The position numbers and the translations under genes were made by a program. Below are positions 11,153 to 55,325 of a DNA stretch of 64,000 bases, piece after piece. Source of the stretch: Candidatus Eiseniibacteriota bacterium (lineage in GTDB: Bacteria; Eisenbacteria; RBG-16-71-46; CAIMUX01; VGJL01); NCBI GenBank assembly GCA_963792585.1, contig CAWBWI010000006.1:992001-1056000 (forward strand). The letters are read 5' to 3'. A model generated the notes under the pieces. It made no database searches, was not told the origin of the DNA, and worked only from the letters and a program-made list of their open reading frames with translations. Every line of letters starts with the position of its first letter. Positions within the stretch are counted from its first letter, which is position 1.

Positions 11153-12202
11153 TCAGGAGATTGTCTGGTTCGGGGCGAGGTCGGTCGCGCCCTCGAGCGG
11201 CGCGGGACACCCGAAGTACCGTTCGTGGGCGACATCCACGATTCGCAGGATGAGGCTGTTGAAGTCGTAGCCGGCGGCCCTCGCCGCCGTCACATAGGCG
11301 CCACCCTGTCCCAGGGACGCCATGGAGTTGATTTCGAGAACGAAGGGTTTGCCTCGATGGTCGAGGCGGATATCGACGCGGGCGTAGTCCCTGCACTGAC
11401 AGGCGCGGAAGACGCCCAAACCGACCTCTCGAATCAACGACGTGGAGGCGCCGTCGAGCGGCGCCGGGCAAAGCTTCTGCGGCTCATCCGACGTCTTGTG
11501 GAACTTGTCCGAACCCGTCACCATCCTCAGCGATCGCCCGCCGAAGTCGATCTCCGTCAACGGGAGGATTCCGGCCGATCCGTTTCCCAAGAGCGCGACG
11601 GCGACCTCCCGCCCTTCGATGTACTCCTCGACCAGGGCATCCTGCCGGAACTCGGTGACGATTCTCTCGACCGCGGGGCTCAACTCATCTCGATCGTGCA
11701 CGAGGGCCAGCCCGCAGCTCGTCGACTCGAAACGCGGCTTCACCACGAGCGGGAACGTCAGCGCATCCGCCTTCCGCAGCTCATCCGATCCGCCCATGAG
11801 ACAGAATGAAGGGGTGGGGATCCCCTCTTGCTGGATCCGCAGCTTCGTGAGCGCCTTGTCCAGGCAGATGGCGTGCGCACGCGGCCCCGACCCTGTATAG
11901 GGCACGCCGGCCATCTCGAGCATCACCGGAACCTGCGAATAGCGGGCCTCACCCTGACTCCCGTAGGACATGTTGAAGACCATCCCCGTCGGCCGCCCGC
12001 TCAGCGGATCGGGAGGCATGAACTCCTTCAGTTCATGAAGCAGGGTCATGTCGCCTTCGAAGACCGCGGCGACATGGCCACCGCTGCGAAGCGCGTCGAG
12101 GACGGCTTGAACAGACTTCCGGCCGTATGTCTCGGGAGACTTCTGCCCGAAGTGGTTGATCACACCTTGATCGGAACGGTTCCGTACGACGGCGATTCTC
12201 AT
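11153..12202 (-). CDS. D-Ala-D-Ala-ligase-like ATP-grasp peptide ligase (non-canonical)
   Basis: GVPYTGS, DKALTK, FPLVVKP, LVEEYIEGREV, YARVDIR, LEIN motifs; lacks the N-terminal GGxSxE of true Ddl. Confidence 0.85.
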   Translation of the reverse strand: MRIAVVRNRSDQGVINHFGQKSPETYGRKSVQAVLDALRSGGHVAAVFEGDMTLLHELKEFMPPDPLSGRPTGMVFNMSYGSQGEARYSQVPVMLEMAGVPYTGSGPRAHAICLDKALTKLRIQQEGIPTPSFCLMGGSDELRKADALTFPLVVKPRFESTSCGLALVHDRDELSPAVERIVTEFRQDALVEEYIEGREVAVALLGNGSAGILPLTEIDFGGRSLRMVTGSDKFHKTSDEPQKLCPAPLDGASTSLIREVGLGVFRACQCRDYARVDIRLDHRGKPFVLEINSMASLGQGGAYVTAARAAGYDFNSLILRIVDVAHERYFGCPAPLEGATDLAPNQTIS

Positions 12203-13212
12203 GAGAGCGGCTCCCTTTCGAGTGCAGGTCGTGGATACGATGAGGTCGACGGGTTCGGGCGAGCATCGCGAGCGAGCTCGGCGCGCGGCGGCGCAGTGGA
12301 GACGGCTCCGGCCTGCGCTGGGGCGAGGCCGAGCGCCAGGGCTGGGATCGGGCCGTCGACCACCGCGGGCTTCGCGATCCGCTTCTTGCCCTTCTTGCCC
12401 TTCCTCCTCTTCTTCACCGGAGGATTGAGGGACGAGAAGAGGCGGTAGCCGAGATACTCGGTGATCAGGATGATCAGGCCGATCTCGAGGATCAGCAGCT
12501 CCGGAAAGCGAACGAGGGTGGTTACGAAACCGGGGATTTCCGCGATCTTCGTGATGAGCACGGCGACGGCGGCCGTGACCGCGCCCCGCCAGAGCGCCGA
12601 ACGCTTCCCTTCCCGGTGGAGCGTGGAGGCAAACGCATCACCGGTAAGGCAAAGAGCAACAATGGGGAAGTAGGCCACGCGCCGGAGACCATCCAGGTCG
12701 AAGGAGCGGCTGATCGACAATGTGGCGGCGATCACCACGGCGACCGTGCTCATCACGACGGAGACCCTTCCGTAGTAGGGAAGCCGGATCCTCTTGAGCG
12801 GCCGGCGCACCGCGACGATGACCCCGAGAACGACCGCCAGAAAGAAGAGGCCGAGCGGGATTCCGGTCGCCTGAAACGCCACGGCGAGCAAGAAGGAGCG
12901 GAAGGGTCCGAGCACGCGGATTCCCAGCGTGACGCGGAAGAAGACGACGATGACGGCTGCCAGCGGCACCAAGAGGACCGATCCGACCCGCTTCCCCGTT
13001 TCTCCGCCGACGCCGGCCAGCGAGGATGCGTGCTCGAGAAGCTCCCCGATCGTCGTTCCCGACAGCTTGAGGCCGATCATCAGGAGGGGCAGCGAGACGA
13101 GCAGGACGACGAATGCCTTCCGGGCCCCGCGAATGCGCCCCCGACCCGTCAGCAGGCGCCGCCGCCCGCGCGCGTTTGGAGCGTCCGCACGGAGGCTCGG
13201 CTCAGACGCCAT
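12199..13212 (-). CDS. 7TM membrane protein of the inactive-transglutaminase-associated family (7TM_transglut-like)
   Basis: LVPLAAVIVVFFRVTLGIRVLGPF, FPIVAL, FPELL...EYLGYRL motifs; multiple TM segments; ATG 13212 overlaps the ggt 3' end; stop overlaps the ligase ATG. Confidence 0.75.
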   Translation of the reverse strand: MASEPSLRADAPNARGRRRLLTGRGRIRGARKAFVVLLVSLPLLMIGLKLSGTTIGELLEHASSLAGVGGETGKRVGSVLLVPLAAVIVVFFRVTLGIRVLGPFRSFLLAVAFQATGIPLGLFFLAVVLGVIVAVRRPLKRIRLPYYGRVSVVMSTVAVVIAATLSISRSFDLDGLRRVAYFPIVALCLTGDAFASTLHREGKRSALWRGAVTAAVAVLITKIAEIPGFVTTLVRFPELLILEIGLIILITEYLGYRLFSSLNPPVKKRRKGKKGKKRIAKPAVVDGPIPALALGLAPAQAGAVSTAPPRAELARDARPNPSTSSYPRPALEREPLS

Positions 13213-14893
13213 CAGCGGTGCCCTCCCGCCGGGGATCCGCCGCCCCGATCCAGTCCCCGTTCGCATCGCGCGCGATCGCCTGCACTCCGCCCATGGCATA
13301 GCTTCTGGACGCCTTGATCTGGACCGGCTGGAAGGAACGTGAGATCTCTTCGAGGACATCGGTCGCGGCCGCGCGCCGCTCCAGCATGACCCGCCCCGAA
13401 GTGGTTGCATGAATTCGCGGGGCGTCCACCGCCTCGGGAAGATCCATCCCCCGGTGAAGGATGTTCGCCATGACCTGGAGGATCGAGGAAGTGATGCGCC
13501 GGCTTCCGGCCGCGCCGATCGCAAGGATGGGGTCCTGCCCTCCATCCGGTCGCCGGCGCAGGACCAGTGTGGGCGCCGCATTGGATTGCGGGGTGGCCCC
13601 GCTCGCGAGACGGCTCGGGTGGCGGTACCGAGGACAGGTGCAGAGGTAATTGTTGTAGAAGAAACCGAGGCGGGAGTTCGCGACCTTCGCCCCGAACAGG
13701 GACTGCACCGATTGCGTGAGGCTGACGACCATCCCGGAGGCATCGGCGACACACAGATGCGTCGTGTCACCAGGTCCCTCCGCCGTCGGACGATCGGAGC
13801 CTGAATTCCCTGCGAGAATTCCACGAGCGATCTCCTCGGCCCGTTCGTCACTCACGAGCCACGCAAGGAGGGATCGAGGTGTGCCGTCCGCCCGAACGGG
13901 CCACCGATCCCGCTCCTGAAAGATCGCGCGCGTGACCTGAGCGATCGCCGCATACCATGTGGGGAGCGCGCACCCTTCGGGCAGTCCGAGTTTCTCGAGA
14001 ACCCGCAACCCCAAGAGCAGCTGCACGCCGCCGCCGGGCGGGGGAACGCTCACGATCCGGTACCCTTGGTGATCGATCGACAGCCCCTCCCTCGTGACGG
14101 GGAGGCGGCAGCCGGACAGATCTTCCCTGGTGATCAGCCCATCCTGCTCGCGCATGTCGGCGACGATGTCGTCCGCGATCGCTCCACGGTAAAAATCATC
14201 GACCCCGAATTCGGAGATTCGTTCCAGCGCGCGCCCCAACTCCGGCTGGCGCAGAATCGAGCCGGTCTTGAGCGGCTTTCCATCGGGCATGAAGCGACGA
14301 CGTGCGAGCGGGGACGCCTCGAGCGCCGTTCCGCACCACTGGATTTGCTTCCGAAGCAACCGCGTCACCGCGAAGCCCTCGTTGGCAAGAGCGGTGGCCG
14401 GTCCCAGTACCGCCGATAGCGGGAGTCTTCCGAATCGCTCCGATGCCGCGCCCAGGGTTGCGGGAGTGGACGGAATCGTGCACGCGCGCGCTCCGCGCCT
14501 CTGCTCGCTCCGGCTGATGCTCTTTCGGCCGGCCCCGGCCGGGCCGTGAGAATGACCGTCCAAGATCACGTTCTTCCCGTCCGGAAGGTGGATGAGCATG
14601 GTCGTCTGCCCGCCGAGACCGGAGCCGCTCGGTTCGCATACCGAGAGGGCCCAGGCGGCTGCGACCGCTGCGTCCACCGCGTTCCCGCCGGACCGAAGGA
14701 TCTCCATCGCCGCCTCGCTGGCGGCGGGGAACGCGGTGGCAACGACGCAACTGGGACCACGCGCGACGCGATCGGTCGGCCGTGCCTTGATCCCACTCCC
14801 GATTTCGGTCACGGCTACCCCCGGATGCGCAGGGTCGTTCATCGGACCCGGCGCCAGTTCCGTCGATGGACCGCCCGGCGGATGTCCCCGCAT
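13202..14893 (-). CDS. Gamma-glutamyltransferase family protein (start 14893 or 14842)
   Basis: ILRSGGNAVDAAVA, VCEPSGSGLGG, FYRGAIA, catalytic TTHL, GAADPRREG; ATG 14893 overlaps the kamA stop (TGATG). Confidence 0.92.
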   Translation of the reverse strand: MRGHPPGGPSTELAPGPMNDPAHPGVAVTEIGSGIKARPTDRVARGPSCVVATAFPAASEAAMEILRSGGNAVDAAVAAAWALSVCEPSGSGLGGQTTMLIHLPDGKNVILDGHSHGPAGAGRKSISRSEQRRGARACTIPSTPATLGAASERFGRLPLSAVLGPATALANEGFAVTRLLRKQIQWCGTALEASPLARRRFMPDGKPLKTGSILRQPELGRALERISEFGVDDFYRGAIADDIVADMREQDGLITREDLSGCRLPVTREGLSIDHQGYRIVSVPPPGGGVQLLLGLRVLEKLGLPEGCALPTWYAAIAQVTRAIFQERDRWPVRADGTPRSLLAWLVSDERAEEIARGILAGNSGSDRPTAEGPGDTTHLCVADASGMVVSLTQSVQSLFGAKVANSRLGFFYNNYLCTCPRYRHPSRLASGATPQSNAAPTLVLRRRPDGGQDPILAIGAAGSRRITSSILQVMANILHRGMDLPEAVDAPRIHATTSGRVMLERRAAATDVLEEISRSFQPVQIKASRSYAMGGVQAIARDANGDWIGAADPRREGTADGV

Positions 14894-16188
14894 CACAGGG
14901 AGCGCCCGTACGCGGCGGTGGCTTCCTCGGACCGCGAATTCGTTTCCATCTCCGCGGATTCGGATCGCCCCGAAAATGCCGCCGGCTTCAGTTGATCGAG
15001 CCAGATCGCCCGGTCGTCGCGGTGGAAGATCATCACACGGCCGACATTCTCCTCGTCCTTGGCCCGGTGATAGCGGGTGTATATGAAGTCGGCGTCGACG
15101 CCGATCACCTCGACCTTGCCGGTCGCGTGAGACATGCAGAATCGCGCGCGGCGCGACAGACCCGAAGACAGTTCCTGAGCCTGACTGAAGATCCTCCAGC
15201 TCTCCACGATCGGGATGTCGAAGGGCTCGTTTCCCGCAGTGGGTCTGCACTGAAAGACGTAGTATTGGGGCGCGCCCAGATTCGTCATCGTGTTGAAGAG
15301 CGCCGCCAGGGTTTCCGGTTTGTCGTTGATCCCCCGGATCATGGGGCACTGGTTCACGACGCGCGCGCCACTGCGCATCGCGCAGGTGACCGCCTCGCGC
15401 GCCTCGGCGGTGAGTTCCCGGGGATGATCGAAGTGCGCCATGATGTAGAGCGCTCTCTCGGGTGTGGCGATCTCCCGTATGAGGCGCTGCAATTCAGGGT
15501 CGTCGAGCAGGCGGAATGGATTGAACGCGAGCATCTTGCTGCCCGTGCGGATCGTGCGGACGTGCGGGATGGCCGCCAGGCGCTCGAGGATGGGCCGCAG
15601 TTTGCCGGTGCTCATGATCAAGGGGTCCCCGCCGGTCAGGAGCACGTCCGTGATTTCCGAGTGCGAAGCGATGTAGGCGAACGCGGGCTCGAGTTCGTGT
15701 ACGGCTTCGTCGTGGTCGTTCATGAAGAGCCGCTTCCGAAAGCAGTAACGGCAGTAAGCGCCGCAGACGTTGTTGACCAGCACCAGCGCCGTGTCCCGGT
15801 ACTTGTGCTGGACGCCCTGCGCCACCGTCACGGCAGCCTCGTTGCTGGCGTCGAGCTTTCCCCACTCGGTCATCTCCCCGCTCGTGGGGATGACGAGCCT
15901 TCGGATCGGGTCTTCGGGATCGTTCCAGTCGATCAGGTTGAGGTAGTAGTCATTCGCCCGGAAGACGTACCGCTTCGACACTTCCTCGAGCGCTTTCTTG
16001 GCTTCCTCGGACAGGCCCTCGACCTGTTGCAGGGAGCGGATGTACTTGACCTTCCTCGACTGCGAACCGGTGGAGGGAACCTCCACGCTGGCCGGCGTGC
16101 GCGACGGGCTCTGTCCAACGTATCCCGAATCTATCCCGGTGGTCTGGATGTCATAGCTGCTGGCCTGGGGTTCGTAATCGTTGTTCAC
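14893..16188 (-). CDS. KamA-family radical SAM protein (lysine 2,3-aminomutase-like)
   Basis: GVQHKY, CGAYCRYCFRKR, LLTGGDPL, HFDHPREL, NQCPMIRGIND; AGGAG RBS before GTG 16188. Confidence 0.92.
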   Translation of the reverse strand: MNNDYEPQASSYDIQTTGIDSGYVGQSPSRTPASVEVPSTGSQSRKVKYIRSLQQVEGLSEEAKKALEEVSKRYVFRANDYYLNLIDWNDPEDPIRRLVIPTSGEMTEWGKLDASNEAAVTVAQGVQHKYRDTALVLVNNVCGAYCRYCFRKRLFMNDHDEAVHELEPAFAYIASHSEITDVLLTGGDPLIMSTGKLRPILERLAAIPHVRTIRTGSKMLAFNPFRLLDDPELQRLIREIATPERALYIMAHFDHPRELTAEAREAVTCAMRSGARVVNQCPMIRGINDKPETLAALFNTMTNLGAPQYYVFQCRPTAGNEPFDIPIVESWRIFSQAQELSSGLSRRARFCMSHATGKVEVIGVDADFIYTRYHRAKDEENVGRVMIFHRDDRAIWLDQLKPAAFSGRSESAEMETNSRSEEATAAYGRSL

Positions 16189-16258: not shown

Positions 16259-16293
16259 CTCCTTGCAGTGCGACTCCACGCCGATTCGATACA
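16259..16293 (-). promoter_or_regulatory. Candidate ECF-sigma promoter for the kamA operon: TGTATC-N18-ACTGCAAGGAG
   Basis: Same bipartite motif as at 18079-18114 (both boxes identical) and similar to 18760-18795. Confidence 0.65.
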
Positions 16294-16493
16294 TCGATTT
16301 CGGGGAATTGAAGGAATGTCCTTCCGATGTGCAGAGTGGATCACGGGCGGATCAAGCCGTCGCGCACACACGCACGCATCCAGAGACGATGCGACCGCGC
16401 TAGAGAGCCGCGATGGTGGATGCAGCTACGGCTTGGTAACTGCGGATCGGGGGCGCGGATCCATCCGGCGGGGTGGACGAGGCTCGTCGCGAT

Positions 16494-17993
16494 CTATCGT
16501 GGAAGGATGCTCACGCGGGAACCCAGCGCTTCTCCTTCCGTCCCGATGCGAACGAAGTAGGTTCCCGGGGAAACGAGACGGGCCGCCTGATCTCTGCCGT
16601 CCCACACGGGCCGGTTCGACCGGCCGAGAACGCGCACGAGCCTTCCCGCGGAATCGAAGATCCGCACATCGAGCTCTCCGAGACTCTCGGGGGCAACGAT
16701 GCGTACATCGCCGGCGCTTGGATTCGGAACGGCGCGGAGATGCTCTCGAGCAAGGACCCCATCGCCCACCGCCGCAATCCCTTCGAGAGCCGCGGGGAGA
16801 TAGATCCGTCCGCTGCCGAGCTTGCCCTGGTATGGATCATTGCCCGGAATCTGGTCGATCGGATCGACGGCGGACTCGATCCGCAGTCGGACGACCTCGG
16901 GAATCTCCAGTGGAAGGAGACTTCGTATCAGGGCGGCCTCGCCGGCAACAAAGGGCGTGGCGAAGGAGCATCCGGCCCCCATGGCCCATAGCCCGCCCGG
17001 ATAGGAACTCCGAACGCCGGTACCGGGGGCGGCTACCAGGACCTTGGAATGCCAGTCGGCAAAGGCGGCTTTCGTGTCCAGCGAGTCGACGGCGGTCACC
17101 ATTTCCGCCTCTTCCGTCCCGGCGGGATAGTAGAGTTGCTCCAGATTGTCGTTGCCGGCCCCGGCGACGACGATGATGCCGTGTTCCCGGGCCAGCTCGA
17201 GCTGATGGCGAATGATCGCGACCCCGCGGGGAACTCCGAAGCTCATATTGAGCACATGGGCCCCTTGATTCACCGCGTAGCTGATTCCCTTTGCGATCTG
17301 GTATGCGTCGCCGTTGCCCTCGTCGCTGAGGACGCGAATGGGAAGGAGCGTGGCCTCCGGGGCGACCAGAGCCACGATGCCGGCGACCATGGTCCCGTGA
17401 CCGTAACCCTCGTCCGCGACGCCGTCCTGATCTTCATCCAGTCCGTTGGCGATCTCCCAGGGACTGCTGTCATCGTCGACGAAGTCGTATCCGAACGGGG
17501 AGAGCTTCGCTTGGATCGCTTCATGGCCGGGATCCACGCCCGTGTCCAGAACGGCAACGGTGACGCCGGCGCCTCGGCTCATCAGGTGCGCGGCATCGAG
17601 ACCGATTCGAGGGCCGATGCTCTGATCTTCGTAGTCGACGTAGCCTCCGCCGACGATGACGATCACCATCTGACGGATGGTCTCCGGCGTGTCGTGGAAG
17701 TAGTTGGCCTCGGCCTCCAGGATTGCCGGATCGGTTTCCATCTGCGATGCCAACCCTTCGACGTCACCCAAATCGGTCGCATCGAGAAGGTACAGGTTCC
17801 CTTCCGGGTAGGCGTCCAGTGTGGTGGTCCCCCAAACGGAGTTGACCTCCTCGATGACATGCCCAGGCTGCAGGTTCACAACCACCTGAGCGGCCTCGTA
17901 GTCATCGGCGATCGCCAGGGCGGGCAGGAGCAGCCCGATCGCGCAGAGGACCCGGCCCATCAGCGGTTGCAGAAGCTTCACGTTGCTCCTCAT
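16494..17993 (-). CDS. Secreted S8 subtilase with FlgD/T9SS-like C-terminal domain (copy 1)
   Basis: Catalytic triad motifs VAVLDTG, GHGTMVAG, GCSFATPFVAG; oxyanion AGAGN; signal peptide; CTD PNP...WDGRD..GTYFVR. Confidence 0.92.
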   Translation of the reverse strand: MRSNVKLLQPLMGRVLCAIGLLLPALAIADDYEAAQVVVNLQPGHVIEEVNSVWGTTTLDAYPEGNLYLLDATDLGDVEGLASQMETDPAILEAEANYFHDTPETIRQMVIVIVGGGYVDYEDQSIGPRIGLDAAHLMSRGAGVTVAVLDTGVDPGHEAIQAKLSPFGYDFVDDDSSPWEIANGLDEDQDGVADEGYGHGTMVAGIVALVAPEATLLPIRVLSDEGNGDAYQIAKGISYAVNQGAHVLNMSFGVPRGVAIIRHQLELAREHGIIVVAGAGNDNLEQLYYPAGTEEAEMVTAVDSLDTKAAFADWHSKVLVAAPGTGVRSSYPGGLWAMGAGCSFATPFVAGEAALIRSLLPLEIPEVVRLRIESAVDPIDQIPGNDPYQGKLGSGRIYLPAALEGIAAVGDGVLAREHLRAVPNPSAGDVRIVAPESLGELDVRIFDSAGRLVRVLGRSNRPVWDGRDQAARLVSPGTYFVRIGTEGEALGSRVSILPR

Positions 17994-18078
17994 CTCTCTC
18001 GGCCCCTGCCCGGGCGCAGGAACGGCGGGTAACACCCTCGTCGGCCCGGCCCTCGACCATCGGGGGCGACCTGAACGA

Positions 18079-18114
18079 CTCCTTGCAGTCGTCCATATTT
18101 CGGCGATTGATACA
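18079..18114 (-). promoter_or_regulatory. Candidate ECF-sigma promoter for subtilase 1: TGTATC-N19-ACTGCAAGGAG
   Basis: Lies between the divergent subtilase and ECF sigma genes; matches the motif at 16259-16293. Confidence 0.65.
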
Positions 18115-18205
18115 AAAGGATACCATTCCCCCGTTCCCAGCTTCCATCCCCCGTACCCCAGGGGTGCGCCCGGGGTTTGCGGGCCCGGCGGTCTATCGTG
18201 GTAGG

Positions 18206-18778
18206 ATGCTGACCATGCGTGAGTTGCACGGTTGGGTGGCGGATCTCCAGGCTGGTGACGACGGGGCCTGGAGGGAGTTCATTCGGGTCTTCTCTCGATT
18301 CGTCCCCCTCGTTGCCGGCCGGCTCGGCCTCACGGCGGAAGAAAAGGAGGAAGTCCTCCAGGAGATGACCCTGACCGCCTACCGATCGATCCGGAATCTC
18401 CGCGATCCGGAACGGCTGAGTTCCTGGACGTACACCATCGCCCGCCGGGCGGCCATCACCATGTGGCGCTCCAAGAAACGGCATCCGGGCTCCGAGCATG
18501 ACGAGGAGGCGGAATTCGACAGGCTTCCCTCCGGGGAGCCCGCGGTCGATACGATCTTGATCGATCACGAGGAAGGTCAGAAGCTGCGCGAGGCGGTCGC
18601 CACGCTTCGCCCTCTATGCCGTGGGCTCATCGATGACCTCTTCCTGAAGGAACCGCGGCGAAGCTACCAGGAGGTCTCGCAGGAACGGAGCATGCCGATC
18701 GGGAGCATCGGTCCGACCCTGGCCCGTTGCCTTCAGACCCTTCGCCAGGCATGGAAATCGGTATCAAATACAGGATGA
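18206..18778 (+). CDS. ECF sigma-70 factor (copy 1)
   Basis: Region 2 (AWREFI...EEVLQE...LRDPERLSSWTYTIARR) and region 4.2 SYQEVS...PIGSIGPTLARCL. Confidence 0.92.
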   Translation: MLTMRELHGWVADLQAGDDGAWREFIRVFSRFVPLVAGRLGLTAEEKEEVLQEMTLTAYRSIRNLRDPERLSSWTYTIARRAAITMWRSKKRHPGSEHDEEAEFDRLPSGEPAVDTILIDHEEGQKLREAVATLRPLCRGLIDDLFLKEPRRSYQEVSQERSMPIGSIGPTLARCLQTLRQAWKSVSNTG

Positions 18779-18795
18779 GGGTCCTCTGCAATGAG
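18760..18795 (+). promoter_or_regulatory. Candidate ECF promoter for anti-sigma/CHAT 1, overlapping the sigma 3' end: GGTATC-N19-TCTGCAATGAG
   Basis: 5/6 and 9/11 matches to the two boxes of the motif at 16259 and 18079, with the same spacing. Confidence 0.55.
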
Positions 18796-19443: not shown

Positions 19444-22254
19444 ATCCCGGACGATCCTGACGAATCGGGCGCCCCGTCTTCCGACGCTCCCCAACTTCTG
19501 CGATCGCTCGAGGATCCGCACTGGGTCCCGAGCTTCCGTGAGGCAACGATCCTGCGAGATCATGTCGCCTCTCTCCTCCAGGCCGACCCGCGACTCGCCG
19601 GTCGGATCGCCATGGATCTCCTGCGCTCCGTTCAGGGCAAGACCTCGGCATCCATCGGCGCGCAAGCCGTCGGATGGAGGGCGCGGGCCGAGTCCCTGCT
19701 GTATGCCGGCGAGTACAAAGCCGCCCGATCCGCTTACGAGAAGGCATGCTCTTGCGCCGGCGCCGCCTCGGAGCATCGTCTTCTCGGCCAAATCCTCGTA
19801 GGCAGGATCGGCACCCTCCTCGTGATGGGCGATTTCCGCTCGATCCACGCGATGACCCGCCAAGCGGAGGCCTTGCTGCGAAGGAACGACGATCAGGAGT
19901 ATCTCCGGCGTCTCCACATCAATCTGGGGAGCGGTCTCTACCATCGCGAGAAGTACGCCGAAGCCTACGCCTCCTTCGCCGAGGCCCTTCGACTGATGGA
20001 GGAGGCGGGCCAGCACGACGATCTGTGGGCGTCCCTGACGCTCAACTTCGGGATCGCGTGCAGCCAGCTCGCGCGCGTGCAGGAGGCGCGCGAGGCGTTC
20101 GCGAAGGCGGAGGCGTACGGCCGCGCCCACGCGCAGGACCGCATGGTGGCCCAGGCGGTGTTCAATCTGGGGGCCCTCGAGGGGCTCCGCGGCGGTTACC
20201 GCGCGGCCCTTCGGTCGCTCACCGAAGCCGAGGAAGCGTTCGTCCGTCAGGGAGTGCAGGAGCTCCTCGCGGCCACCCACCTCGAGCAGGCCCAGATCTA
20301 TCTCGATCTATCCATGGCCACCGAGGGCAAGGAGCTTGCCCAGAGGGCGGCCTCCGCATTCACCTCGGAAGGGATGCTCCTCGACGCGCAGCTGGCGCGG
20401 ATCGCGGAGGCGCGAAGCCTCGTGATGTTGGGACGGCCCAAGGAGGCGGAGGGGCTTCTGCGCGATGCCGAGCGCTTCTACCGGGCGCAGCACATCGCGG
20501 CAAGAAGAGCGCAGGCCCTGCTGGACATCGCGCTGGCGATGTCGGCCCGCGACGAGACGGCAGCCGCGATGCAAACGGCCCGCAGCGCGCTCAGCGTGGC
20601 CGAGCGATTGCACCTGGGAAGCCTGACCTGCGCTTGCCGTTGTCTCATCGCAGAGCTGCTCCTCCGAACTGGTGCCGGGCCCAAGGCTGAACGCGCCCTG
20701 GCGGGCATCGTCCCGGGGCTTTCGAAATTGCCGATGCGCGATCGCCTCGAATACTGGAGCACGGCCGCGCGGGTCGCGGCGTTCCGAGGAATGACCGCGC
20801 TGGCCGGACGCCGCTACCGCAGGGCAACGCAGTGTTTGGAAGCTCAGAGGGCACTGATTCCGGGTCTCGAACTCCGCACGAAGTCGTTCGAACAGAACGT
20901 CCGCGTCTACCACGAGAAGATCGCGCTCCTGGCGGGGTCTCGACGCCCCCAACTCGATCGCATCCTGCTCCTGATGGAGCGGGCGCGGGGTAGAACGTTC
21001 CGGGAGCTCGTGGCCGCGCGGGGCCGGCAGTCGCAGGGGGAGATTGCGGAGCTCCGAGCCGTGCTCGGCTCCCTGGTGCGGCGCCTCGACCACCTCGTGA
21101 TGGGAGAGCGTCCGGCGGCGCCCCAGGAGGTAGAGCCCCTCCGACGGCAGGTCGTGCAGCTCGAACACCAGATCACCTCGCGCGTGCGCCGGATCGAGAC
21201 GACGGAGGGGTCCGTCACCGGAAGCGGTTCGTTCCGAAGGTCATCCCAGATCGTCCCCCTTCTCGCCGCCGACGAGGTGATGATCGAGTACTTCGTAGCG
21301 AAGGATCGAATTCTGGCGGCGGTGGTGGGAAAGCAGGAGCGTTTCCTGCGGACGCTCGAGGCACCACTGCCCAGGCTACGGGATCTCCTCGACCATTTCG
21401 GCCTCCAACTGGAATCGCTCGCCGCCACCGCGAGCCGACCCTTGGGGGGCCAGGCGTTCCTGCGACGGAGCGCGGAAGCGAAACTGGAGGAGTTCTACTC
21501 GTTGCTCCTCCGACCCATCCTCGGGGATCTTCCCCCCTGCGGACGGCTCACGATCATTCCGCACGACATCCTGCACCAGATCCCGTTCGAGTGTCTTCAC
21601 GACGGAACTCAGTACCTCGATCGTTCTTGGCAGATCACGCGGTGCCCGACGGCAGATTTCCTGATCGAGCGCAGAAGTCGGTCACGGGGGGCCCCCGTAG
21701 GGAATACGGTGGTCATCGCCGGAACTCGCCCCGGATCCCCATTCATCGAGGTGGAAGCACGGCGGGTGCTGGATTCCTGGGAGCCGTCCGGCAGCCGGTT
21801 GTTGGTCGATCCATCCTCTGCCGATGCTCTGGCCGCCATGAAGGGGGCCCGGGTCATTCACGTGAGCGCCCACGGCAACTTCCGCGGCGACAACCCCCTA
21901 TTCTCGACGCTGCACCTCGGTCGTGAGGTGCTCTTTCTGGCCGATATCCTGGAGACGCCCCTCACCGCCGACCTGGCCGTTCTGAGTTCCTGCGACAGCG
22001 GACAAACATTCAGTGGCCGAGGGGACGCCCTACTGGGCGTCGCACATGCATTCCTCGCCGCCGGCACGGACCGCCTGGTGGCCTCCCTCTGGCGCGTCCA
22101 CGATCAAGCCACGGCTTCCTGGATGGAGGCCTTTCACCGCGCCTTGCGGGAGAGCGGGGACGCCCCGGCGGCCCGCCTTCACGCTTGCCAGGTGGTTCGG
22201 GAAGAGTGGCCGCATCCCTTCTACTGGGGCGGATTCAGCGTTCTCGGAGGCTAG
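19444..22254 (+). CDS. TPR-CHAT (caspase HetF-associated) protease (copy 1); first ATG is 19612, but the frame is open and homologous from about 19444
   Basis: Long TPR-like helical region; CHAT motifs IIPHDILHQIPFE, IHVSAHG (His), LSSCDSG (Cys), VASLWRV, HPFYWGGF. Confidence 0.9.
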   Translation: MPDDPDESGAPSSDAPQLLRSLEDPHWVPSFREATILRDHVASLLQADPRLAGRIAMDLLRSVQGKTSASIGAQAVGWRARAESLLYAGEYKAARSAYEKACSCAGAASEHRLLGQILVGRIGTLLVMGDFRSIHAMTRQAEALLRRNDDQEYLRRLHINLGSGLYHREKYAEAYASFAEALRLMEEAGQHDDLWASLTLNFGIACSQLARVQEAREAFAKAEAYGRAHAQDRMVAQAVFNLGALEGLRGGYRAALRSLTEAEEAFVRQGVQELLAATHLEQAQIYLDLSMATEGKELAQRAASAFTSEGMLLDAQLARIAEARSLVMLGRPKEAEGLLRDAERFYRAQHIAARRAQALLDIALAMSARDETAAAMQTARSALSVAERLHLGSLTCACRCLIAELLLRTGAGPKAERALAGIVPGLSKLPMRDRLEYWSTAARVAAFRGMTALAGRRYRRATQCLEAQRALIPGLELRTKSFEQNVRVYHEKIALLAGSRRPQLDRILLLMERARGRTFRELVAARGRQSQGEIAELRAVLGSLVRRLDHLVMGERPAAPQEVEPLRRQVVQLEHQITSRVRRIETTEGSVTGSGSFRRSSQIVPLLAADEVMIEYFVAKDRILAAVVGKQERFLRTLEAPLPRLRDLLDHFGLQLESLAATASRPLGGQAFLRRSAEAKLEEFYSLLLRPILGDLPPCGRLTIIPHDILHQIPFECLHDGTQYLDRSWQITRCPTADFLIERRSRSRGAPVGNTVVIAGTRPGSPFIEVEARRVLDSWEPSGSRLLVDPSSADALAAMKGARVIHVSAHGNFRGDNPLFSTLHLGREVLFLADILETPLTADLAVLSSCDSGQTFSGRGDALLGVAHAFLAAGTDRLVASLWRVHDQATASWMEAFHRALRESGDAPAARLHACQVVREEWPHPFYWGGFSVLGG

Positions 22255-32792: not shown

Positions 32793-34322
32793 CTAGCGGT
32801 CCAGGACGATTCGTCCCTGGAGCGATCCTCCGTCGACGTGCACGAAGTAGACGCCGGGCGGGACCGCTCGACCCGAAGCGTCCCGTCCATTCCAGCGCGC
32901 CAGACCGGTGGGTCCGGGTTCGATCGTCCGGACGCGGCGACCCGCTGCGTCGACGACGACCATCCGGGAAAGCCCGCCGGTGTTGCCGAGCCTGAAGGAA
33001 ACCCCCTGTCCGACCCGGGCGGGATTCGGGAAGAGTTCGAGGCGCCCTACCGTCAAGCCCGTGCCGTCGACGTCCGCAGTCTTGGGGCTCGCGACCCACG
33101 TCGCCATCCCGTCGAAGCGCCCGCTACCGAGTTGGCCCTCGTAGGGCCCATTCTCCGGGATTTGGTAGATCCCGACGACCCCGAGCCCGACGGTGCCGTA
33201 GACAGTCTGTACGCTTGCGTCGGGCTTCAGCGACAGGACGAGGGCGCACTGCCCGCTGACGAATGGCGCCGAGAAGGACGTCCCGGCTCCGATCGCATAC
33301 TCCCCGTCGTAGAAGGGTGCCAGCACTCCATCCCCGGGCGCGGCGACGTCGACGGTCGATCCATAGCTCGTAAAGCTCGTCCGGACGTCGACGGAGTCGA
33401 GTGCCGCGACGGAGACGACCTGAGGGTCGCTTGCGGGGTAGTAGACGGGATAGTCGGAACCGCCGTTGCCGGCCGCACCCACCATCGCGACCGACAAGTC
33501 GTAGGCCGCGCGGACCTCATGCCTGATGACCATGCACTCCTGGGTCAGCCCCAGGCTCAGGTTGATTACCTGCGCGCCATGCTCGACCGCATAGCGGATC
33601 CCCTTGGCGACATGGAAGGTCGTTCCACGACCTTCGTCGTCGAGGACCCGGATGGGCAGGATCCTCGCATTCGGGGCGACGAGGTGCACGATCCCGGCCA
33701 CCATCGTTCCGTGGCCCGCCCCATCATCGGTCAAACCGTCGAGGTCATCATCGGCCCCGTTGGCCTCATCGAGTGGATCCGCGTCGTTATCCACGAAATC
33801 CCAGCCATTCGGATCGATCGCGCCGTTGAAGGCCGGGTGATCGGGAAGCACCCCTGTGTCGATGACGGCGACCAGGACGCCGTCCCCCATCGTGTGGGAC
33901 TGGATCTCGGCGAGACGGATCCGCGTGGTCAGGTGCTGGTCGAGATAATCCGTAATGGTCCCGCCTACGGCGGCGACCATCATCTGCCGCGTGCCCTCGG
34001 GGGTTTCGTTGTCCCACGAGTACTCGGCCTCGACCACGTTCGGATTCTGGCGGATCTGGTAGACATATTCGGCTTCGCTGCCGTCGGGGCACCGCAGCAG
34101 GTAGAGCGGCGGCAGAGAATCAAGCGTCGAGGTGCCATAGAGATCATTGATGACCGAAATCGGCGTCCCCGGAATGAGCTCCACCTGGAGTTGTCCGATT
34201 TCCCAGTCGTCCGCGAAGCTGCGCTTCGCCTCTGCGCCCATGAGCAATGCCACGAGTAAGGCGATGAGCGCGGGCACGAGGGTCAGGCGTCTGCGGCGAA
34301 TGGAGATTGTCGAGCGATCCAT
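32793..34322 (-). CDS. Secreted S8 subtilase with FlgD/T9SS-like CTD (copy 2)
   Basis: VAVIDTG, GHGTMVAG, AAGN, GTSFSAPFVSG; GGAGG RBS; signal peptide; clearly paralogous to 16494-17993. Confidence 0.93.
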   Translation of the reverse strand: MDRSTISIRRRRLTLVPALIALLVALLMGAEAKRSFADDWEIGQLQVELIPGTPISVINDLYGTSTLDSLPPLYLLRCPDGSEAEYVYQIRQNPNVVEAEYSWDNETPEGTRQMMVAAVGGTITDYLDQHLTTRIRLAEIQSHTMGDGVLVAVIDTGVLPDHPAFNGAIDPNGWDFVDNDADPLDEANGADDDLDGLTDDGAGHGTMVAGIVHLVAPNARILPIRVLDDEGRGTTFHVAKGIRYAVEHGAQVINLSLGLTQECMVIRHEVRAAYDLSVAMVGAAGNGGSDYPVYYPASDPQVVSVAALDSVDVRTSFTSYGSTVDVAAPGDGVLAPFYDGEYAIGAGTSFSAPFVSGQCALVLSLKPDASVQTVYGTVGLGVVGIYQIPENGPYEGQLGSGRFDGMATWVASPKTADVDGTGLTVGRLELFPNPARVGQGVSFRLGNTGGLSRMVVVDAAGRRVRTIEPGPTGLARWNGRDASGRAVPPGVYFVHVDGGSLQGRIVLDR

Positions 34323-34532
34323 GAACACCTCCAATAGATGCTCTGATTCATGATATGCGCAAACATCATAGCAGAGAGAGCGCGATTCGTTCAAAGCCGT
34401 TCCCAGTACACCGATTCCCTCCGGGACCTGGAGCTGACCGAAGGGTCAGCAGCGGCCGTCGCGACAAATATCCAAGAAACTGATCTAATAATGATCATGC
34501 CATTAGGCCAACTCACGATTCGACCCGAGAGG

Positions 34533-37412
34533 CTATCTCCCGATGCCTCCGAGCGACGCGAATGAGGCCCAATGCCATGGATGGGGACGCCGGATCATGA
34601 GGGAACGCATCGCGCGGCCCAGCGCGATCGCCGGGGCGTCCCCCGTCGCGAACGAATCGTAGAAGAACTCCATCAACTCGAGGGTCGGGTCGTCCTGGAT
34701 CGGCCAGAGACTCGCAACGACCGAGGAGGCACCCGCCTGCAGAAAGCCTCGAGCAAGCCCGATCCACTCGTCCCCTACGGGAGCGGCGCCCCGGCCCGAA
34801 GAGCAAGCCGTCAGCACCACCGTGGACGAGGGAAGGCGAAAGTCCGCCAGGTCGTGAACGAAGAGCGGCCCATCCGCCAACTGGACGAAGGAGTAGGCAG
34901 GGTTGTCGCGACGCAGCATTCCGTGGGCCGCGATGTGGATGAGGTGCGCCCGTCGACCTTCCCGGCGCATGCTTTCGATCGTGGGCGCGAGGTCGGAGTG
35001 AATCTCCCAACCGGGCAGGTTTGCCTGAACGCGCTCCACCTCGACCGCCACCGAAGGCAGTAGATCCGAAGGGACCCCCGCGACGAAGGCGGCCCTCCCT
35101 GCGCGCGCCGGAGCGGGAGGAAGTGCGCGCCAGATACGCGCGCTGGGGACGATGGCGATGTCCGTCCGCTCGGCGATGTAGCCGTCGCGGCCCCGCAGAG
35201 CATGAAGCGGCACGCGATGGATCGCTCCGTGCGGAGAGACGATCCAGCGCAATGACGCATCCACGCCCATCTGCTCGAGAGGCTCCCAGAGGAGTCCGTG
35301 GAGCTCCGCGAGAATCGCGTCGGCGGAGGATTGAAGACGCCGCTCCGCGGCGCTCGGCGCACACGATTCGGTGGCGGCCAATTGCGCGCCGCGCACGCTC
35401 GTCATGGCCGCAGCGGTCCACTGGAAATCGAGTCGGTCGGTCAGACGGGCGAGCCGTGCGCCGAGATCGTTCGCCAGGCGGCGCCAGACGGAGCCATCGC
35501 GGGTCACGGCGAGCGCCACTGAGAAATCAGGCCCGATGTGGTAGGCGAGGAAGCCCCAACCCCGTGGGAGATCACGTTGGAGTTCCGGTAGCGAGGGGGG
35601 CTCTCCGCTTCCGATCCGGTCGCGACCGGATCGACGCTCTCGATCCTCGCGCAGGGCCTTGCTCCACTCCCCCTCCGTGGCGATCAAGCGCGGGCGGAGC
35701 TCGATTGCGCGCGCGCGATCCTCGGGCGAGCCGAGTTCCAGGCGGGAGATCCGCGCGTGCAGCCAGGCAAGCCGACGCCGCGCAGCGGTGAGGCGACGAT
35801 CCCGCGGCCTCTCCCCCTCGAAGAGGTAGGCATCGGGGTCGCGCAGGCGATCCCAGAGGCTCTGGGCGCGGGCGCGTTCCGTCCACTCGAACAGCCGATC
35901 GATCGAAGGCCGCGGGCGATCGATCTCGATCGCGAGGAGACGGTCGTGGAGGTGGTTCTTGTCGCCGAGGAAGGCGATCTTCGAGTCTTCGGTCGGGATT
36001 CGAGAGCGCAGATCCTCGAGTCGGGTCAGGGCGTTTCGGTAGGAGCGGCTCGCCTCGCCGGACTTGCCGGCTTGCTCCTGCGCCCTACCGAGCGCCTCGA
36101 GCAACCGATAGGCGGGGATCGGATAGACCTGCTGGGGCAGGCGACGGAGCAGCCGGCGAAGCCGGGGAATTCGCTCCTCTCCCGTCTCCCGCCGCTCGAG
36201 CAGCTCATCCAGAAGAACGGTTGCCGTCGACTCCCATCGGATCAGACCGAGCCGCTCGAAGGCATCGATGGCGGCGCGCACGCGTCGCTCCGCCTCGGCG
36301 CGCCCCCCGCGCCGGCGCAGCGCCTCCCCTTTCAGCATGTCCATCAAGGCGACACGGGGCGCGTTCTTCTCCTTCCGGAAGAGTCTCTGGCCCCGCCGGA
36401 TCCGATCGAGCGCCGTCGGGAGATCCCCGAGCGCCATGCTCGAGAGGGCCTCCTGGCTGAGAGCCAACGCCTCGTCGTATGCGAGCCCCTCTTCAGCGAA
36501 CAAGGGGATCGCCTGTCTCGAGAGATCGAGCGCCTCCTGATGGAGGTTCAACTGGTGGTAGATCTCGGCTCGGTTGAGAAGACACTCCGCTTCGAACGCA
36601 GGATGCTCTGTTTGGTGGAAATAGGTGGTCAAGAGGCTTATCTCTCGGAGTGCCTTGCCAAAATCCGCCCTTTGAGCGTGCACATAGGCGGCATTCATCC
36701 GAACTTGGGCCTGGAGAACCTCGAAACCGCGCTTGCCGGTTTCCTTCTCCAGCCGCTCGAAAAGGGCCAGCGCCTCTTCGTCTCGGTCGAGCTGGCTCAG
36801 GGCGACCCCTCGATTGACTTCCAATCCGAGGACCGTTTCGTCCCGGATGCGAAGCCTGCGAAAGATCTCCGAGGCCCGTTCGATCTCCTCGAGCGCCGGG
36901 CCGTAGCGGTCGTGCTGGAAGTGGCTCGAGCCGAGGTTCATGGCGAGCTTGGCCAGATAGGTCTGATCCCCCGCCTCCTCGAGATTGCGGCGGGCTTCGA
37001 TCACGGCTTTCTCGGCGTCGCGATGGCGGCCGAGGAGCGAGAGGACATGGACGGCGCCGACGAGGAGTTGACCGAGAAGGCCCGGAGCACTCGCCCGCCG
37101 CCAGGCCTCGGCAGCCTGGGTGTAGGAGGCATTGGCATCACGCATCCGACCGGAGAAGAGGAGCGACTCGGCCACCGCGCGGTGGCCCCAACCGAGGGAG
37201 AGGGGATCGCCGAGAAGCTCGGCGAGTTCGAGGGCGCGCGAGGCGATCCGCCGGGCGGCGGAAGCATCGGTGTGGTAGAAAGGGACCGCCTCCATCCGGA
37301 GGGCCTGAACCCAGCCGGCTCCGGTCCCAGGTAGTCCTTCCCGAACGCGCCTCCCTAGCTCCTGGGAGGAGGCATCAACCAGATCCTTCGTGCTCGGAGG
37401 ACTACCGGTCAC
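34533..37412 (-). CDS. TPR-CHAT protease (copy 2)
   Basis: TPR-like repeats; PHGAIHRVPLHAL, IHIAAHG (His), LTACSSG (Cys), VVASLWPI, HPWHWASF. Confidence 0.92.
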   Translation of the reverse strand: MTGSPPSTKDLVDASSQELGRRVREGLPGTGAGWVQALRMEAVPFYHTDASAARRIASRALELAELLGDPLSLGWGHRAVAESLLFSGRMRDANASYTQAAEAWRRASAPGLLGQLLVGAVHVLSLLGRHRDAEKAVIEARRNLEEAGDQTYLAKLAMNLGSSHFQHDRYGPALEEIERASEIFRRLRIRDETVLGLEVNRGVALSQLDRDEEALALFERLEKETGKRGFEVLQAQVRMNAAYVHAQRADFGKALREISLLTTYFHQTEHPAFEAECLLNRAEIYHQLNLHQEALDLSRQAIPLFAEEGLAYDEALALSQEALSSMALGDLPTALDRIRRGQRLFRKEKNAPRVALMDMLKGEALRRRGGRAEAERRVRAAIDAFERLGLIRWESTATVLLDELLERRETGEERIPRLRRLLRRLPQQVYPIPAYRLLEALGRAQEQAGKSGEASRSYRNALTRLEDLRSRIPTEDSKIAFLGDKNHLHDRLLAIEIDRPRPSIDRLFEWTERARAQSLWDRLRDPDAYLFEGERPRDRRLTAARRRLAWLHARISRLELGSPEDRARAIELRPRLIATEGEWSKALREDRERRSGRDRIGSGEPPSLPELQRDLPRGWGFLAYHIGPDFSVALAVTRDGSVWRRLANDLGARLARLTDRLDFQWTAAAMTSVRGAQLAATESCAPSAAERRLQSSADAILAELHGLLWEPLEQMGVDASLRWIVSPHGAIHRVPLHALRGRDGYIAERTDIAIVPSARIWRALPPAPARAGRAAFVAGVPSDLLPSVAVEVERVQANLPGWEIHSDLAPTIESMRREGRRAHLIHIAAHGMLRRDNPAYSFVQLADGPLFVHDLADFRLPSSTVVLTACSSGRGAAPVGDEWIGLARGFLQAGASSVVASLWPIQDDPTLELMEFFYDSFATGDAPAIALGRAMRSLMIRRPHPWHWASFASLGGIGR

Positions 37413-38124: not shown

Positions 38125-38159
38125 ATTCGAGAAGTCGACCTAGGAGCTGGGCTGATACA
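38125..38159 (-). promoter_or_regulatory. Candidate ECF promoter for anti-sigma/CHAT 2: TGTATC-N18-ACTTC
   Basis: TGTATC immediately after the sigma 2 stop, the same position as in module 1; ACT conserved at 18-nt spacing. Confidence 0.5.
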
Positions 38160-38164
38160 CGCCT

Positions 38165-38818
38165 CTAACCGGTCCACCCCCGTTCCTCGTAGATGCGGCG
38201 CATCTTCTCCAAGCAGCGGGCCCGGGTGGGACCGATGCTCCCGACCGGAAGCCCCTCCCGACGGGAGATCTCCCCATAGTCGGGGGAAGGATCTTCGTAG
38301 AAGAGAATCTGAAGCAGGCGACGGCAACGCCCCGGCAGTCTCTCGAGCGCCTCCGCGATCTGCTGGGCCCGCTCGAGTTCCACCCGGCTGTGATCCGGCA
38401 GATCCCCCGAGTCGGGAGGATCGACCATGACGCGGCCCGAGCCCTCGTCCCCCTCTTCCAAGGCGGTCTCCCGCGCACGGGTCCGCGAGCGGATTCGGTT
38501 GATCGCCTGGCGGTAGGTGATCCCAACGATCCAGGAGGCAAGGCTCTCGCGGTTTCGTAGCCTGCCCAGGTCCGCGTAGATCACGAGCATCGACGATTGA
38601 AAGGCATCTTCCTGGTCTTCATCGGGCAGACCGACCTTCAGAATCGTCGAGTAAATTAGGTTCGCATAGCGCCGGAGGAACTCCTCCCATGACTCGGGTC
38701 GTTGGGCGATGCAAGCGTCGATCAACTCGATCGCGGTGAGGGCGCGCAAGGCGGCGGAAGTTCCACCGGGCAGGAAGGATCGCTTCCGCCCTGGTCGCGA
38801 CGAGGCCTCGTTCGGCAT
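38165..38818 (-). CDS. ECF sigma-70 factor (copy 2)
   Basis: SWEEFLRRY...EDAFQ...LASWI and DYGEISRREGLPVGSIGPTRARCL; same subfamily signature as copy 1. Confidence 0.93.
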   Translation of the reverse strand: MPNEASSRPGRKRSFLPGGTSAALRALTAIELIDACIAQRPESWEEFLRRYANLIYSTILKVGLPDEDQEDAFQSSMLVIYADLGRLRNRESLASWIVGITYRQAINRIRSRTRARETALEEGDEGSGRVMVDPPDSGDLPDHSRVELERAQQIAEALERLPGRCRRLLQILFYEDPSPDYGEISRREGLPVGSIGPTRARCLEKMRRIYEERGWTG

Positions 38819-38928
38819 GCGGCTACAGTAGCATACGCAGGGCTCCAGAGGAGCCAAGGAGACAGCACCGCGCTTCCCCCTTCATGACCGGCCTGCTGGG
38901 GAAAGTGGCGCCTCGTGATCGGAACGCA

Positions 38929-55000: not shown

Positions 55001-55325
55001 GAGCCCGTTCGTCGGCAAGGGCGACGGCGAGGTTCAGGGCGGTCTGGCCGCCGACGGTCGCGAGGACAGGCGTCGGGACGCTCCCTCGCGACGACCTTCT
55101 CGACGTACTCGGGCGTGAGCGGCTCGATGTAGGTCGCATCGGCAAGGCCGGGATCGGTCATGATCGTCGCCGGGTTCGAGTTGACGAGGATCACCCGGCA
55201 TCCCTTCCTCGCGGAGCGCCTTCACCGCCTGCGTTCCCGAGTAGTCGAACTCGCATCCCTGCCCGATCACGATCGGGCCCGGACCCGAGGACGAGGACCG
55301 AGCGTGATCCCGCCCTACGGGGCAC
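51992..55325 (-). pseudogene. carB: Carbamoyl-phosphate synthase large subunit, split by many indels (probably sequence errors rather than true decay)
   Basis: Motifs scattered over three frames: [95 protein letters not shown] domain. Confidence 0.9.

Follow-up and report, generated by a model that had tools for sequence, protein, structure and literature searches.

A two-box motif as the predicted promoter of two ECF54-like sigma factors in a Candidatus Eiseniibacteriota genome, and its link to a kamA operon

The question raised by this locus is whether a short bipartite motif, found ahead of several neighboring genes, is the sequence by which two sigma factors recognize their targets. The stretch analyzed here (the window) is 64,000 nucleotides (nt) of a Candidatus Eiseniibacteriota genome (GCA_963792585.1, contig CAWBWI010000006.1, positions 992,001 to 1,056,000) and encodes two extracytoplasmic function (ECF) sigma factors in two cassettes. 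Cassette 1 consists of subtilase 1 (-), sigma 1 (+), a small +1 gene, and a TPR-CHAT protease gene, and cassette 2 (-) of sigma 2, its +1 gene, a second TPR-CHAT gene, and subtilase 2. The motif precedes subtilase 1, both +1 genes (predicted anti-sigmas), and kamA, the first gene of an operon with gamma-glutamyltranspeptidase-family (GGT), membrane, ligase, and repeat proteins. Comparison with related loci indicates that this directional motif is probably the -35/-10 promoter of the two ECF54-like sigmas. The kamA site is its weakest local member, yet relatives appear to support it.

Layout and conservation of the motif

Re-reading the sequence bore out the four sites described in a first-pass annotation of this DNA, in letters and coordinates alike, and each faces the next gene as had been stated (Table 1). 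Their distance from the genes had been put at about 50-90 nt, which holds roughly; the real span from motif end to start codon is slightly wider, at 49-98 nt (kamA 71, subtilase 1 98 or 86 to an upstream ATG, anti-sigma 1 49, and anti-sigma 2 66). The -35 box for anti-sigma 1 lies within the final codons of sigma 1 (Val-Ser), whose stop ends at 18778. TGTATC-N17-20-CTGCA matched twice in the window versus never in 100 shuffles, and [TG]GTATC-N17-20-[AT]CTGCA had four matches in the 5.4-Mb genome, three of them inside one 2.5 kb, a count that is no independent test since the strict CTGCA pattern was derived from the window sites themselves.

At the sigma loci of other genomes, TATCA stands just past sigma region 4 in 44 of 49 segments. 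It was seen in 1 of 47 segments lying 400 nt beyond these and, on the opposite strand, in 1 of 49. The motif is thus enriched and one-directional at orthologous loci. The full two-box site, (G/C)TATCA followed by 16-18 nt and a C-rich -10 box, is present in 58 of 63 sigma-3' regions, with a -35 consensus of (G/C)TATCA(G/A/C) and a lineage-dependent -10 box (GACTGC, GACTTCT, or CACCTCT; forms ACTGC, TCTAC, ACTTCT, and CCTCT). Directional boxes ahead of target genes at this distance have the layout of ECF promoters, whose boxes are described as 16-18 bp apart. The site falls in the sigma reading frame in 27 of the 63 regions, in another frame in 13, and between genes after the stop in 18, with none in 5; in-frame sites use GTA, TCA, and CTA, which are 2-3.5% codons in the window genome. 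The three positional settings and the use of rare codons argue for a DNA signal, for which protein constraint is no explanation.

Ahead of the sigma gene itself, the motif is found in the sense direction at 4 of 61 loci. On the divergent strand it stands at 21 of 61, its target there being a subtilase gene or, in family f17, one for a glycosyltransferase. Set against the 58 of 63 sigma-3' regions, these counts agree with the first-pass proposal that feedback starts at the sigma 3' end, and autoregulation from upstream of sigma was rejected as the rule. Family f17 has a distinct sigma region 2.4 and carries CACCTCT at linked and unlinked genes alike. In eight of its loci (L180, L181, L183-L186, L196, and L197), the divergent glycosyltransferase is of the GT4 type, with a site of 17-23 bits. 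Behind CHAT at two other loci (L142, 13880-14365, +; L143, 5217-5606, -), a motif site is followed by the gene for a small secreted protein that has a beta-sandwich and a Gln/Tyr-rich tail, the L143 copy being read in frame; a search of the window genome found no match to it.

We then ranked upstream regions with a family matrix trained on these sigma-3' regions, with the window genome left out, over 4585 genes from codon-model calls made here. The subtilase 1 site ranked first (20.4 bits), the anti-sigma 2 site second (19.2 bits), and the anti-sigma 1 site, which has the same position in relatives, fifth (17.8 bits). The regions upstream of sigma 1, sigma 2, and subtilase 2 scored 4.4, -1.4, and 0.0 bits, respectively. 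The ACTGC-type -10 box of kamA, subtilase 1, and anti-sigma 1 is likely read by sigma 1, and the GACTTCT type by sigma 2. The cognate-promoter proposal, with the subtilase and the anti-sigma/CHAT genes in the regulon, held up in comparisons of orthologue enrichment, orientation, and, as described below, unlinked kamA operons.

The kamA operon, distant targets, and competing explanations

The five-gene kamA operon is kept in relatives whose sigmas sit on other contigs, and no sigma or CHAT gene was seen near it in the 10 stretches read. A site above 12 bits lies upstream of 8 of 12 kamA genes with an adjacent GGT gene (opposite strand, 0 of 12) and of 5 of 74 kamA genes lacking one. The sigma is present in 11 of 11 genomes carrying the kamA-GGT operon versus 87 of 206 in the phylum, and the kamA -10 box resembles the -10 box of the resident sigma-3' site (64 versus 58.5 +/- 2.1 in permuted pairings, P=0.006); six of the 11 genomes are kin within one family and carry much of the weight in both results, so that the likeness test overstates. 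The placing of the kamA operon in the regulon is thus favored by the unlinked orthologous operons and less so by the window site, the weakest of the four.

Candidate targets also lie far from the sigma genes. A crude signal-peptide rule is passed by 16 of the 32 genes scoring above 11 bits; among all genes the figure is 878 of 4587 (P=8e-5), and among antisense matches 2 of 27. The pattern GTATC[AG]-N16/17-[GC]ACTGC, picked after its hits were seen, has seven matches in the genome, all intergenic, and six of them sit 79-132 nt ahead of a gene on the same strand. These genes are kamA, subtilase 1, and four with signal peptides, of which three encode beta-propeller repeats with FlgD-Ig or Por tails. 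The seventh match has no clear target, and every one of the four matches to the reversed pattern is within a gene. The four unlinked secreted-protein genes, with sigma-1-type sites 79-109 nt upstream, lie at G000:C1:1288321-1301653, where three fall within 14 kb, and at C1:140142-142925. Further distant sigma/anti-sigma pairs, with partners weakly matching the anti-sigma profile, are at G000:C2:360629-362253, C2:405620-406847, and C4:30375-31698.

Several points weigh against the promoter interpretation, besides the reliance on kin genomes and the after-the-fact choice of the last pattern. The kamA site reaches 6.1 bits and rank 494 of 4585. Genome-wide matches at thresholds of 11-12 bits are nearly equal on the two strands (32 sense versus 27 antisense; 20 versus 24), so that weak matches are mostly noise. 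Four of the 12 GGT-kamA sites are weak (the window, one relative, and two copies in another genome); these four regions keep a GTAT box and a -10-like box 105-130 nt upstream. Only some divergent subtilases have a strong site. Two genomes that are 96% complete and have no detected sigma (G051 and G052) carry motif-like sites of 15.5 and 13.6 bits before a non-GGT kamA paralogue. Outside the phylum, 12 kamA upstream regions of the cassette scored at most 6.7 bits and 30 metagenome loci had no sigma or CHAT gene, which limits the kamA-motif link to the window's phylum among what was searched. The kamA operon occurs twice on one contig (G090:C5), both copies with the GGTATTTC variant as -35 box and an intact CACCTGT -10 box.

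The alternative that survives best, although we judge it unlikely, accepts the motif as the sigma promoter but holds that the window kamA site has decayed and that the operon is reached mainly by read-through from subtilase 1 or from another promoter. The low score stems from a short spacer and from GTATCG, where 57 of 58 family sites have the A of GTATCA; in addition, subtilase 1 is co-oriented 305 nt upstream, with no terminator-like site found between (Sigma-70 promoter and terminator scans stayed at shuffle level). Against decay, orthologues retain a site at the same distance, and a secreted gene elsewhere in the genome has its own intergenic GTATCG...GACTGC site upstream. A related strain, about 95% alike and represented by RNA contigs from four metatranscriptome runs whose cover is flat over genes and intergenic DNA, differs within the kamA site at spacer positions 16273 and 16277 only, versus at least 23 substitutions in 16308-16486, among the 40 of 893 differences listed.

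Less probable still is that the motif is the operator of another transcription factor while the sigmas read other sequences. The sites in the two genomes with no detected sigma would fit this, as would GTATC...GATAC inverted pairs in some divergent intergenic regions. However, the motif is strictly one-directional, and its boxes are 16-17 nt apart, as in ECF promoters; a palindromic operator was rejected. Its -10 half shifts with sigma lineage (e.g., the region 2.4 of f17 together with CACCTCT), and the cassettes read have no further conserved regulator. Least credible of all is that the matches are by-products of a conserved Val-Ser/Leu-Ser at the sigma C-terminus, a short local duplication, and an AGGAG ribosome-binding site. 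In its favor, 27 of the 63 sites keep both the frame and a constant offset within the sigma gene, and the kamA and subtilase 1 sites have 11 identical bases in common ending in AGGAG. But 31 of 63 lie in another frame or between genes, rare codons are used, a GGAG-containing tail is found in 4 of 58 sites, and the AGGAG of the kamA and subtilase 1 sites has no start codon after it, so that coding constraint and a ribosome-binding site were both rejected and this explanation is largely refuted by the region-4 counts and the frame and codon analysis.

The kamA-GGT-7TM-Ddl-like set (window 11153-16188) also recurs in unrelated metagenome contigs (L223-L252), where the genes come in two orders, kamA is more distant (32-42%), and the repeat protein is missing. 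The set is apparently a wider, undescribed biosynthetic cassette, although work by Iyer and colleagues from 2009 may have described an aminomutase/7TM/ATP-grasp cassette already. The window aminomutase scored 183-203 bits against the lysine, glutamate, and arginine 2,3-aminomutase equivalogs (cut-offs 396-650) and 195.1 bits against the KamA subfamily (cut-off 199.2), and an atlas look-up of the 1276-aa repeat protein gave no match at 0.9 or above. From family knowledge, the aminomutase presumably makes a beta-amino acid that the ATP-grasp enzyme ligates, with the 7TM and GGT proteins exporting, transferring, or trimming the product.

Sigma supply, inhibitor, and protease

With the two-box motif probably serving as the sigma promoter of its targets, the sigma genes themselves appear to be transcribed otherwise. 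An extended -10 element lies 5-8 nt ahead of an in-frame sigma start at 27 of 65 loci, both window sigmas among them. The corresponding counts are 5 for out-of-frame starts and 3 on the antisense strand, and across the genome 105 of 4590 genes show the arrangement; the element would be a housekeeping leaderless promoter. Subtilase 2, which has no ECF motif, has an extended -10 (TG-c-TATGAT) upstream at 34340-34360 (-), so housekeeping sigma or read-through from the anti-sigma 2 promoter may serve it.

Pfam and NCBIfam scans gave the anatomy listed in Table 1. CHAT and S8 domains occur jointly in 20 of 28 larger sigma stretches. The +1 proteins carry a zinc anti-sigma motif, HxxxCxxC, in 45 of 55 open reading frames (ORFs), a count that is weakened as evidence for an inhibitor by the use of this motif in choosing the ORFs and by its absence from anti-sigma 1 itself. 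PF13620 (carboxypeptidase-regulatory-like) was found in 12 of 51 +1 proteins, and anti-sigma 1 has no Pfam match. The predicted sigma 1/anti-sigma 1 complex scored 0.71 versus 0.30 for the best of three controls, its runs sharing at least 88% of contacts with a partner pLDDT (predicted local distance difference test) of at least 73. The mark applied to such complexes is reached by 116 of 157 solved pairs versus 2 of 215 mismatched pairs; here too caution is due, in that the model may pass through likeness to solved ECF/anti-sigma pairs. Foldseek with the anti-sigma 1 model found no match at E<=0.001, solved anti-sigmas included.

Arg91 is invariant in 51 of 51 +1 proteins and, in the predicted model, lies in a 15-residue loop joining the helical part to the beta-sandwich, outside the listed sigma interface. 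HetF cleaves PatU3 between R117 and S118 (PMC9457339) and separases cleave after Arg, so Arg91 is the predicted CHAT site. In the subtilases (window 16494-17981, -; 32793-34322, -; and homologues), PE[AG][VI]R[QM]M occurs near the predicted prodomain end, with Arg in 34 of 36 distinct rows, and resembles the anti-sigma linker [AG][VIL]R[GS]. This Arg may be a second CHAT site; as a counterpoint, these subtilases carry signal peptides, and CHAT appears to be cytoplasmic.

We propose a circuit in which the housekeeping leaderless promoter would give a steady supply of sigma, held by the soluble +1 protein as in the predicted complex. A cytoplasmic signal would activate TPR-CHAT, whose cut after Arg91 of the anti-sigma would set sigma free. 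The targets of free sigma would be the subtilase gene, the whole five-gene kamA operon, and a few genes for secreted beta-propeller proteins elsewhere in the genome, while the internal promoter would yield more anti-sigma and CHAT with no extra sigma, resetting the switch. The operon's product may be a peptide of the beta-amino-acid or gamma-glutamyl type destined for the envelope or matrix, which is the least certain step. More tentatively still, ECF54-type cassettes in general could be a CRISPR-free, caspase-like switch for surface remodeling. A single Arg-specific CHAT would have two substrates, the anti-sigma linker ([AG][VIL]R before G/S, 51 of 51) and the similar junction of the pro-subtilase (E[AG][VI]R before Q, with Arg present in 34 of 36). 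Once free, sigma, which would not regulate itself, would switch on glycosyltransferases, secreted beta-propeller proteins, and a pathway for beta-amino-acid peptides, and would renew the supply of its inhibitor from a promoter in its own 3' end.

If the promoter interpretation is true, it would show what a protease-controlled sigma switch turns on. ECF54 cassettes have a wide distribution, and few outputs are known for TPR-CHAT proteases outside CRISPR. With its promoter defined, target genes named, and a candidate anti-sigma bearing a candidate cut site, the family becomes amenable to simple reporter and cleavage experiments. The unlinked kamA operon, for its part, points to an undescribed peptide pathway. 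Elsewhere in the window (52179-56262, -), the carbamoyl-phosphate synthase genes run in several reading frames, which suggests frameshifts or assembly errors.

Table 1. Predicted promoter elements and genes of the two sigma cassettes and the kamA operon (window coordinates).
Feature	Position	Strand	Sequence or basis
kamA site, predicted sigma-1 promoter of kamA operon	16259..16293	-	TGTATC-N18-ACTGCAAGGAG
kamA promoter boxes (predicted)	-35 16292..16287; -10 16270..16265	-	GTATCG, 16 nt, CACTGC
Subtilase 1 site, predicted sigma-1 promoter	18079..18114	-	TGTATC-N19-ACTGCAAGGAG
Subtilase 1 promoter boxes (predicted)	-35 18113..18108; -10 18090..18085	-	GTATCA, 17 nt, GACTGC
Anti-sigma 1 + TPR-CHAT 1 site, predicted internal promoter	18760..18795	+	GGTATC-N19-TCTGCAATGAG
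Anti-sigma 1 promoter boxes (predicted)	-35 18761-18766; -10 18784-18789	+	GTATCA, 17 nt, CTCTGC
Anti-sigma 2 + TPR-CHAT 2 site, predicted internal promoter	38130..38159	-	TGTATC-N18-ACTTC at 38159..38131
Anti-sigma 2 promoter boxes (predicted)	-35 38158..38153; -10 38136..38130	-	GTATCA, 16 nt, GACTTCT; directly past sigma 2 stop
ECF sigma 1, ECF54-like	18215..18778	+	Sigma70_r2, TIGR02937; tree and profile match to actinobacterial ECF54-context sigma
ECF sigma 2, ECF54-like	38165..38818	-	Family scan; 33% identical to sigma 1
Extended -10, 7 nt ahead of sigma 1 ATG	18199..18207	+	TG-g-TAGGAT; housekeeping-type, predicted leaderless transcript
Extended -10, 6 nt ahead of sigma 2 ATG	38825..38833	-	TG-c-TACTGT; housekeeping-type, predicted leaderless transcript
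Anti-sigma 1 (predicted), 198 aa	18844..19440	+	N-terminal helices, loop with invariant Arg91, beta-sandwich; without family zinc motif
Anti-sigma 2 (predicted), 218 aa	37409..38065	-	Zinc anti-sigma motif HxxxxCxxC; weak ChrR-family match
TPR-CHAT protease 1	19612..22254	+	His754/Cys794 motifs; no signal peptide seen; frame open from ~19441
TPR-CHAT protease 2	34533..37412	-	Catalytic His and Cys motifs kept
Subtilase 1	16494..17981	-	Signal peptide, S8 domain, FlgD-Ig/Por-type tail
Subtilase 2	32793..34322	-	Motif upstream absent
KamA-family radical SAM aminomutase	14893..16188	-	Family scan; below all equivalog cut-offs
GGT-family protein	13202..14842	-	Family scan; TTH motif present
7TM_transglut/RloB-like membrane protein	12199..13212	-	Family scan
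D-Ala-D-Ala-ligase-like (Ddl-like) ATP-grasp ligase	11153..12202	-	Family scan
Secreted acidic repeat protein, 1276 aa	7307..11137	-	Por/FlgD-type tail; fifth gene of conserved operon

Relation to known systems

The literature searched, to which Huang 2015, Iyer 2009, and Table S2 of the ECF supplement did not belong, held no experimental study of ECF54 and no description of an internal sigma-3' promoter or of the link to the kamA operon. The motif pipeline of the ECF classification scans upstream of the sigma gene, its operon, and the divergent gene, so that feedback promoters embedded in the 3' end would be missed.

The kamA operon resembles Pseudomonas rloABC (PMC11957051) in setting a 7TM_transglut (RloB-like) protein beside an ATP-grasp enzyme, with an envelope-related role. 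It differs in that the window 7TM protein does not show the long architecture of RloB (69.6 bits against a cut-off of 900), its ATP-grasp partner resembles Ddl, and the retropepsin is replaced by an aminomutase, GGT, and repeat protein. DdvA-DdvS of Myxococcus xanthus (PMC11506125) likewise joins a zinc anti-sigma domain, TPR-CHAT, and an ECF sigma within one circuit. DdvA, however, is a single transmembrane protein with a periplasmic TPR-CHAT, whereas the window parts are separate and soluble, and ddvS is driven by its own promoter, whereas the window sigmas have no motif upstream. In the HetF-PatU3-HetZ system of Anabaena (PMC9457339), a CHAT protease cuts an inhibitor after Arg and releases the partner regulator; HetF is a divisome protein, and CHAT cleavage in the window system is a prediction.

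Type III-E CASP (Strecker et al. 2022, PMC10028731) is similar in having a cytoplasmic TPR-CHAT (Csx29) beside a soluble anti-sigma (Csx30) and the ECF CASP-sigma, whose motif marks local targets as it does here. The window targets differ in being envelope and secreted genes, and a Cas7-11/CRISPR link was not seen in the window: the two CHAT proteins match the Csx29 equivalog weakly (29.1 and 34.8 bits, cut-off 300), and no Cas family was found among 54 window ORFs scanned.

The closest described counterpart is ECF54. Its account (PMC7826278; review PMC8999054) gives a distribution that is 100% Actinobacteria and a context of a +1 carboxypeptidase-regulatory-like gene, a subtilase, TPR-CHAT, and no anti-sigma, with a predicted promoter of -35 GTATCAG and -10 CTCC (PMC7826278, Casas-Pastor et al. 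2021). The window -35 half matches this GTATCAG, both window cassettes hold a subtilase, sigma, small +1 partner, and TPR-CHAT, and the window sigma and +1 protein are homologues of their actinobacterial counterparts. Placement was by proxy, with the sigmas of four actinobacterial plasmid-collection records, one of which (L203) has a full ECF54-type cassette, standing in for the ECF54 model. In the midpoint-rooted tree, the sigmas of the window and its relatives group with these four, apart from 14 other sigmas of the genome (99/99). The hhalign comparison of the sigma family with the actinobacterial sigma gave 99.9% (E 2.8e-34), and the profile match of the +1 protein to the actinobacterial +1 protein was 93.5% (E 2.4e-7). 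The L203 cassette has TGTATCAG-N15-TCTCTG ahead of its subtilase-sigma-partner operon. Labeled from their translations, a peroxidase-like gene after CHAT in L203 (2631, -) has an actinobacterial motif site before it, as has a cytochrome-P450-like gene in L204 (7588, +) just past a sigma without CHAT.

The differences from ECF54 are several. The lineage-specific -10 box here is similar to but not identical with CTCC, a point against the promoter interpretation. Most +1 proteins here have a zinc-type anti-sigma domain, whereas ECF54 is described without an anti-sigma; the promoter sits at the sigma 3' end rather than ahead of a sigma-containing operon, and there are unlinked targets. Finally, ECF54 is described from Actinobacteria only, whereas the family here is found in 87 of 206 genomes of another, little-studied phylum, the closest named relatives being labeled Candidatus Eisenbacteria. 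Judging from these sequence comparisons, the window system appears to work like ECF54 and, lying outside the Actinobacteria, is classed as ECF54-like rather than as a member.

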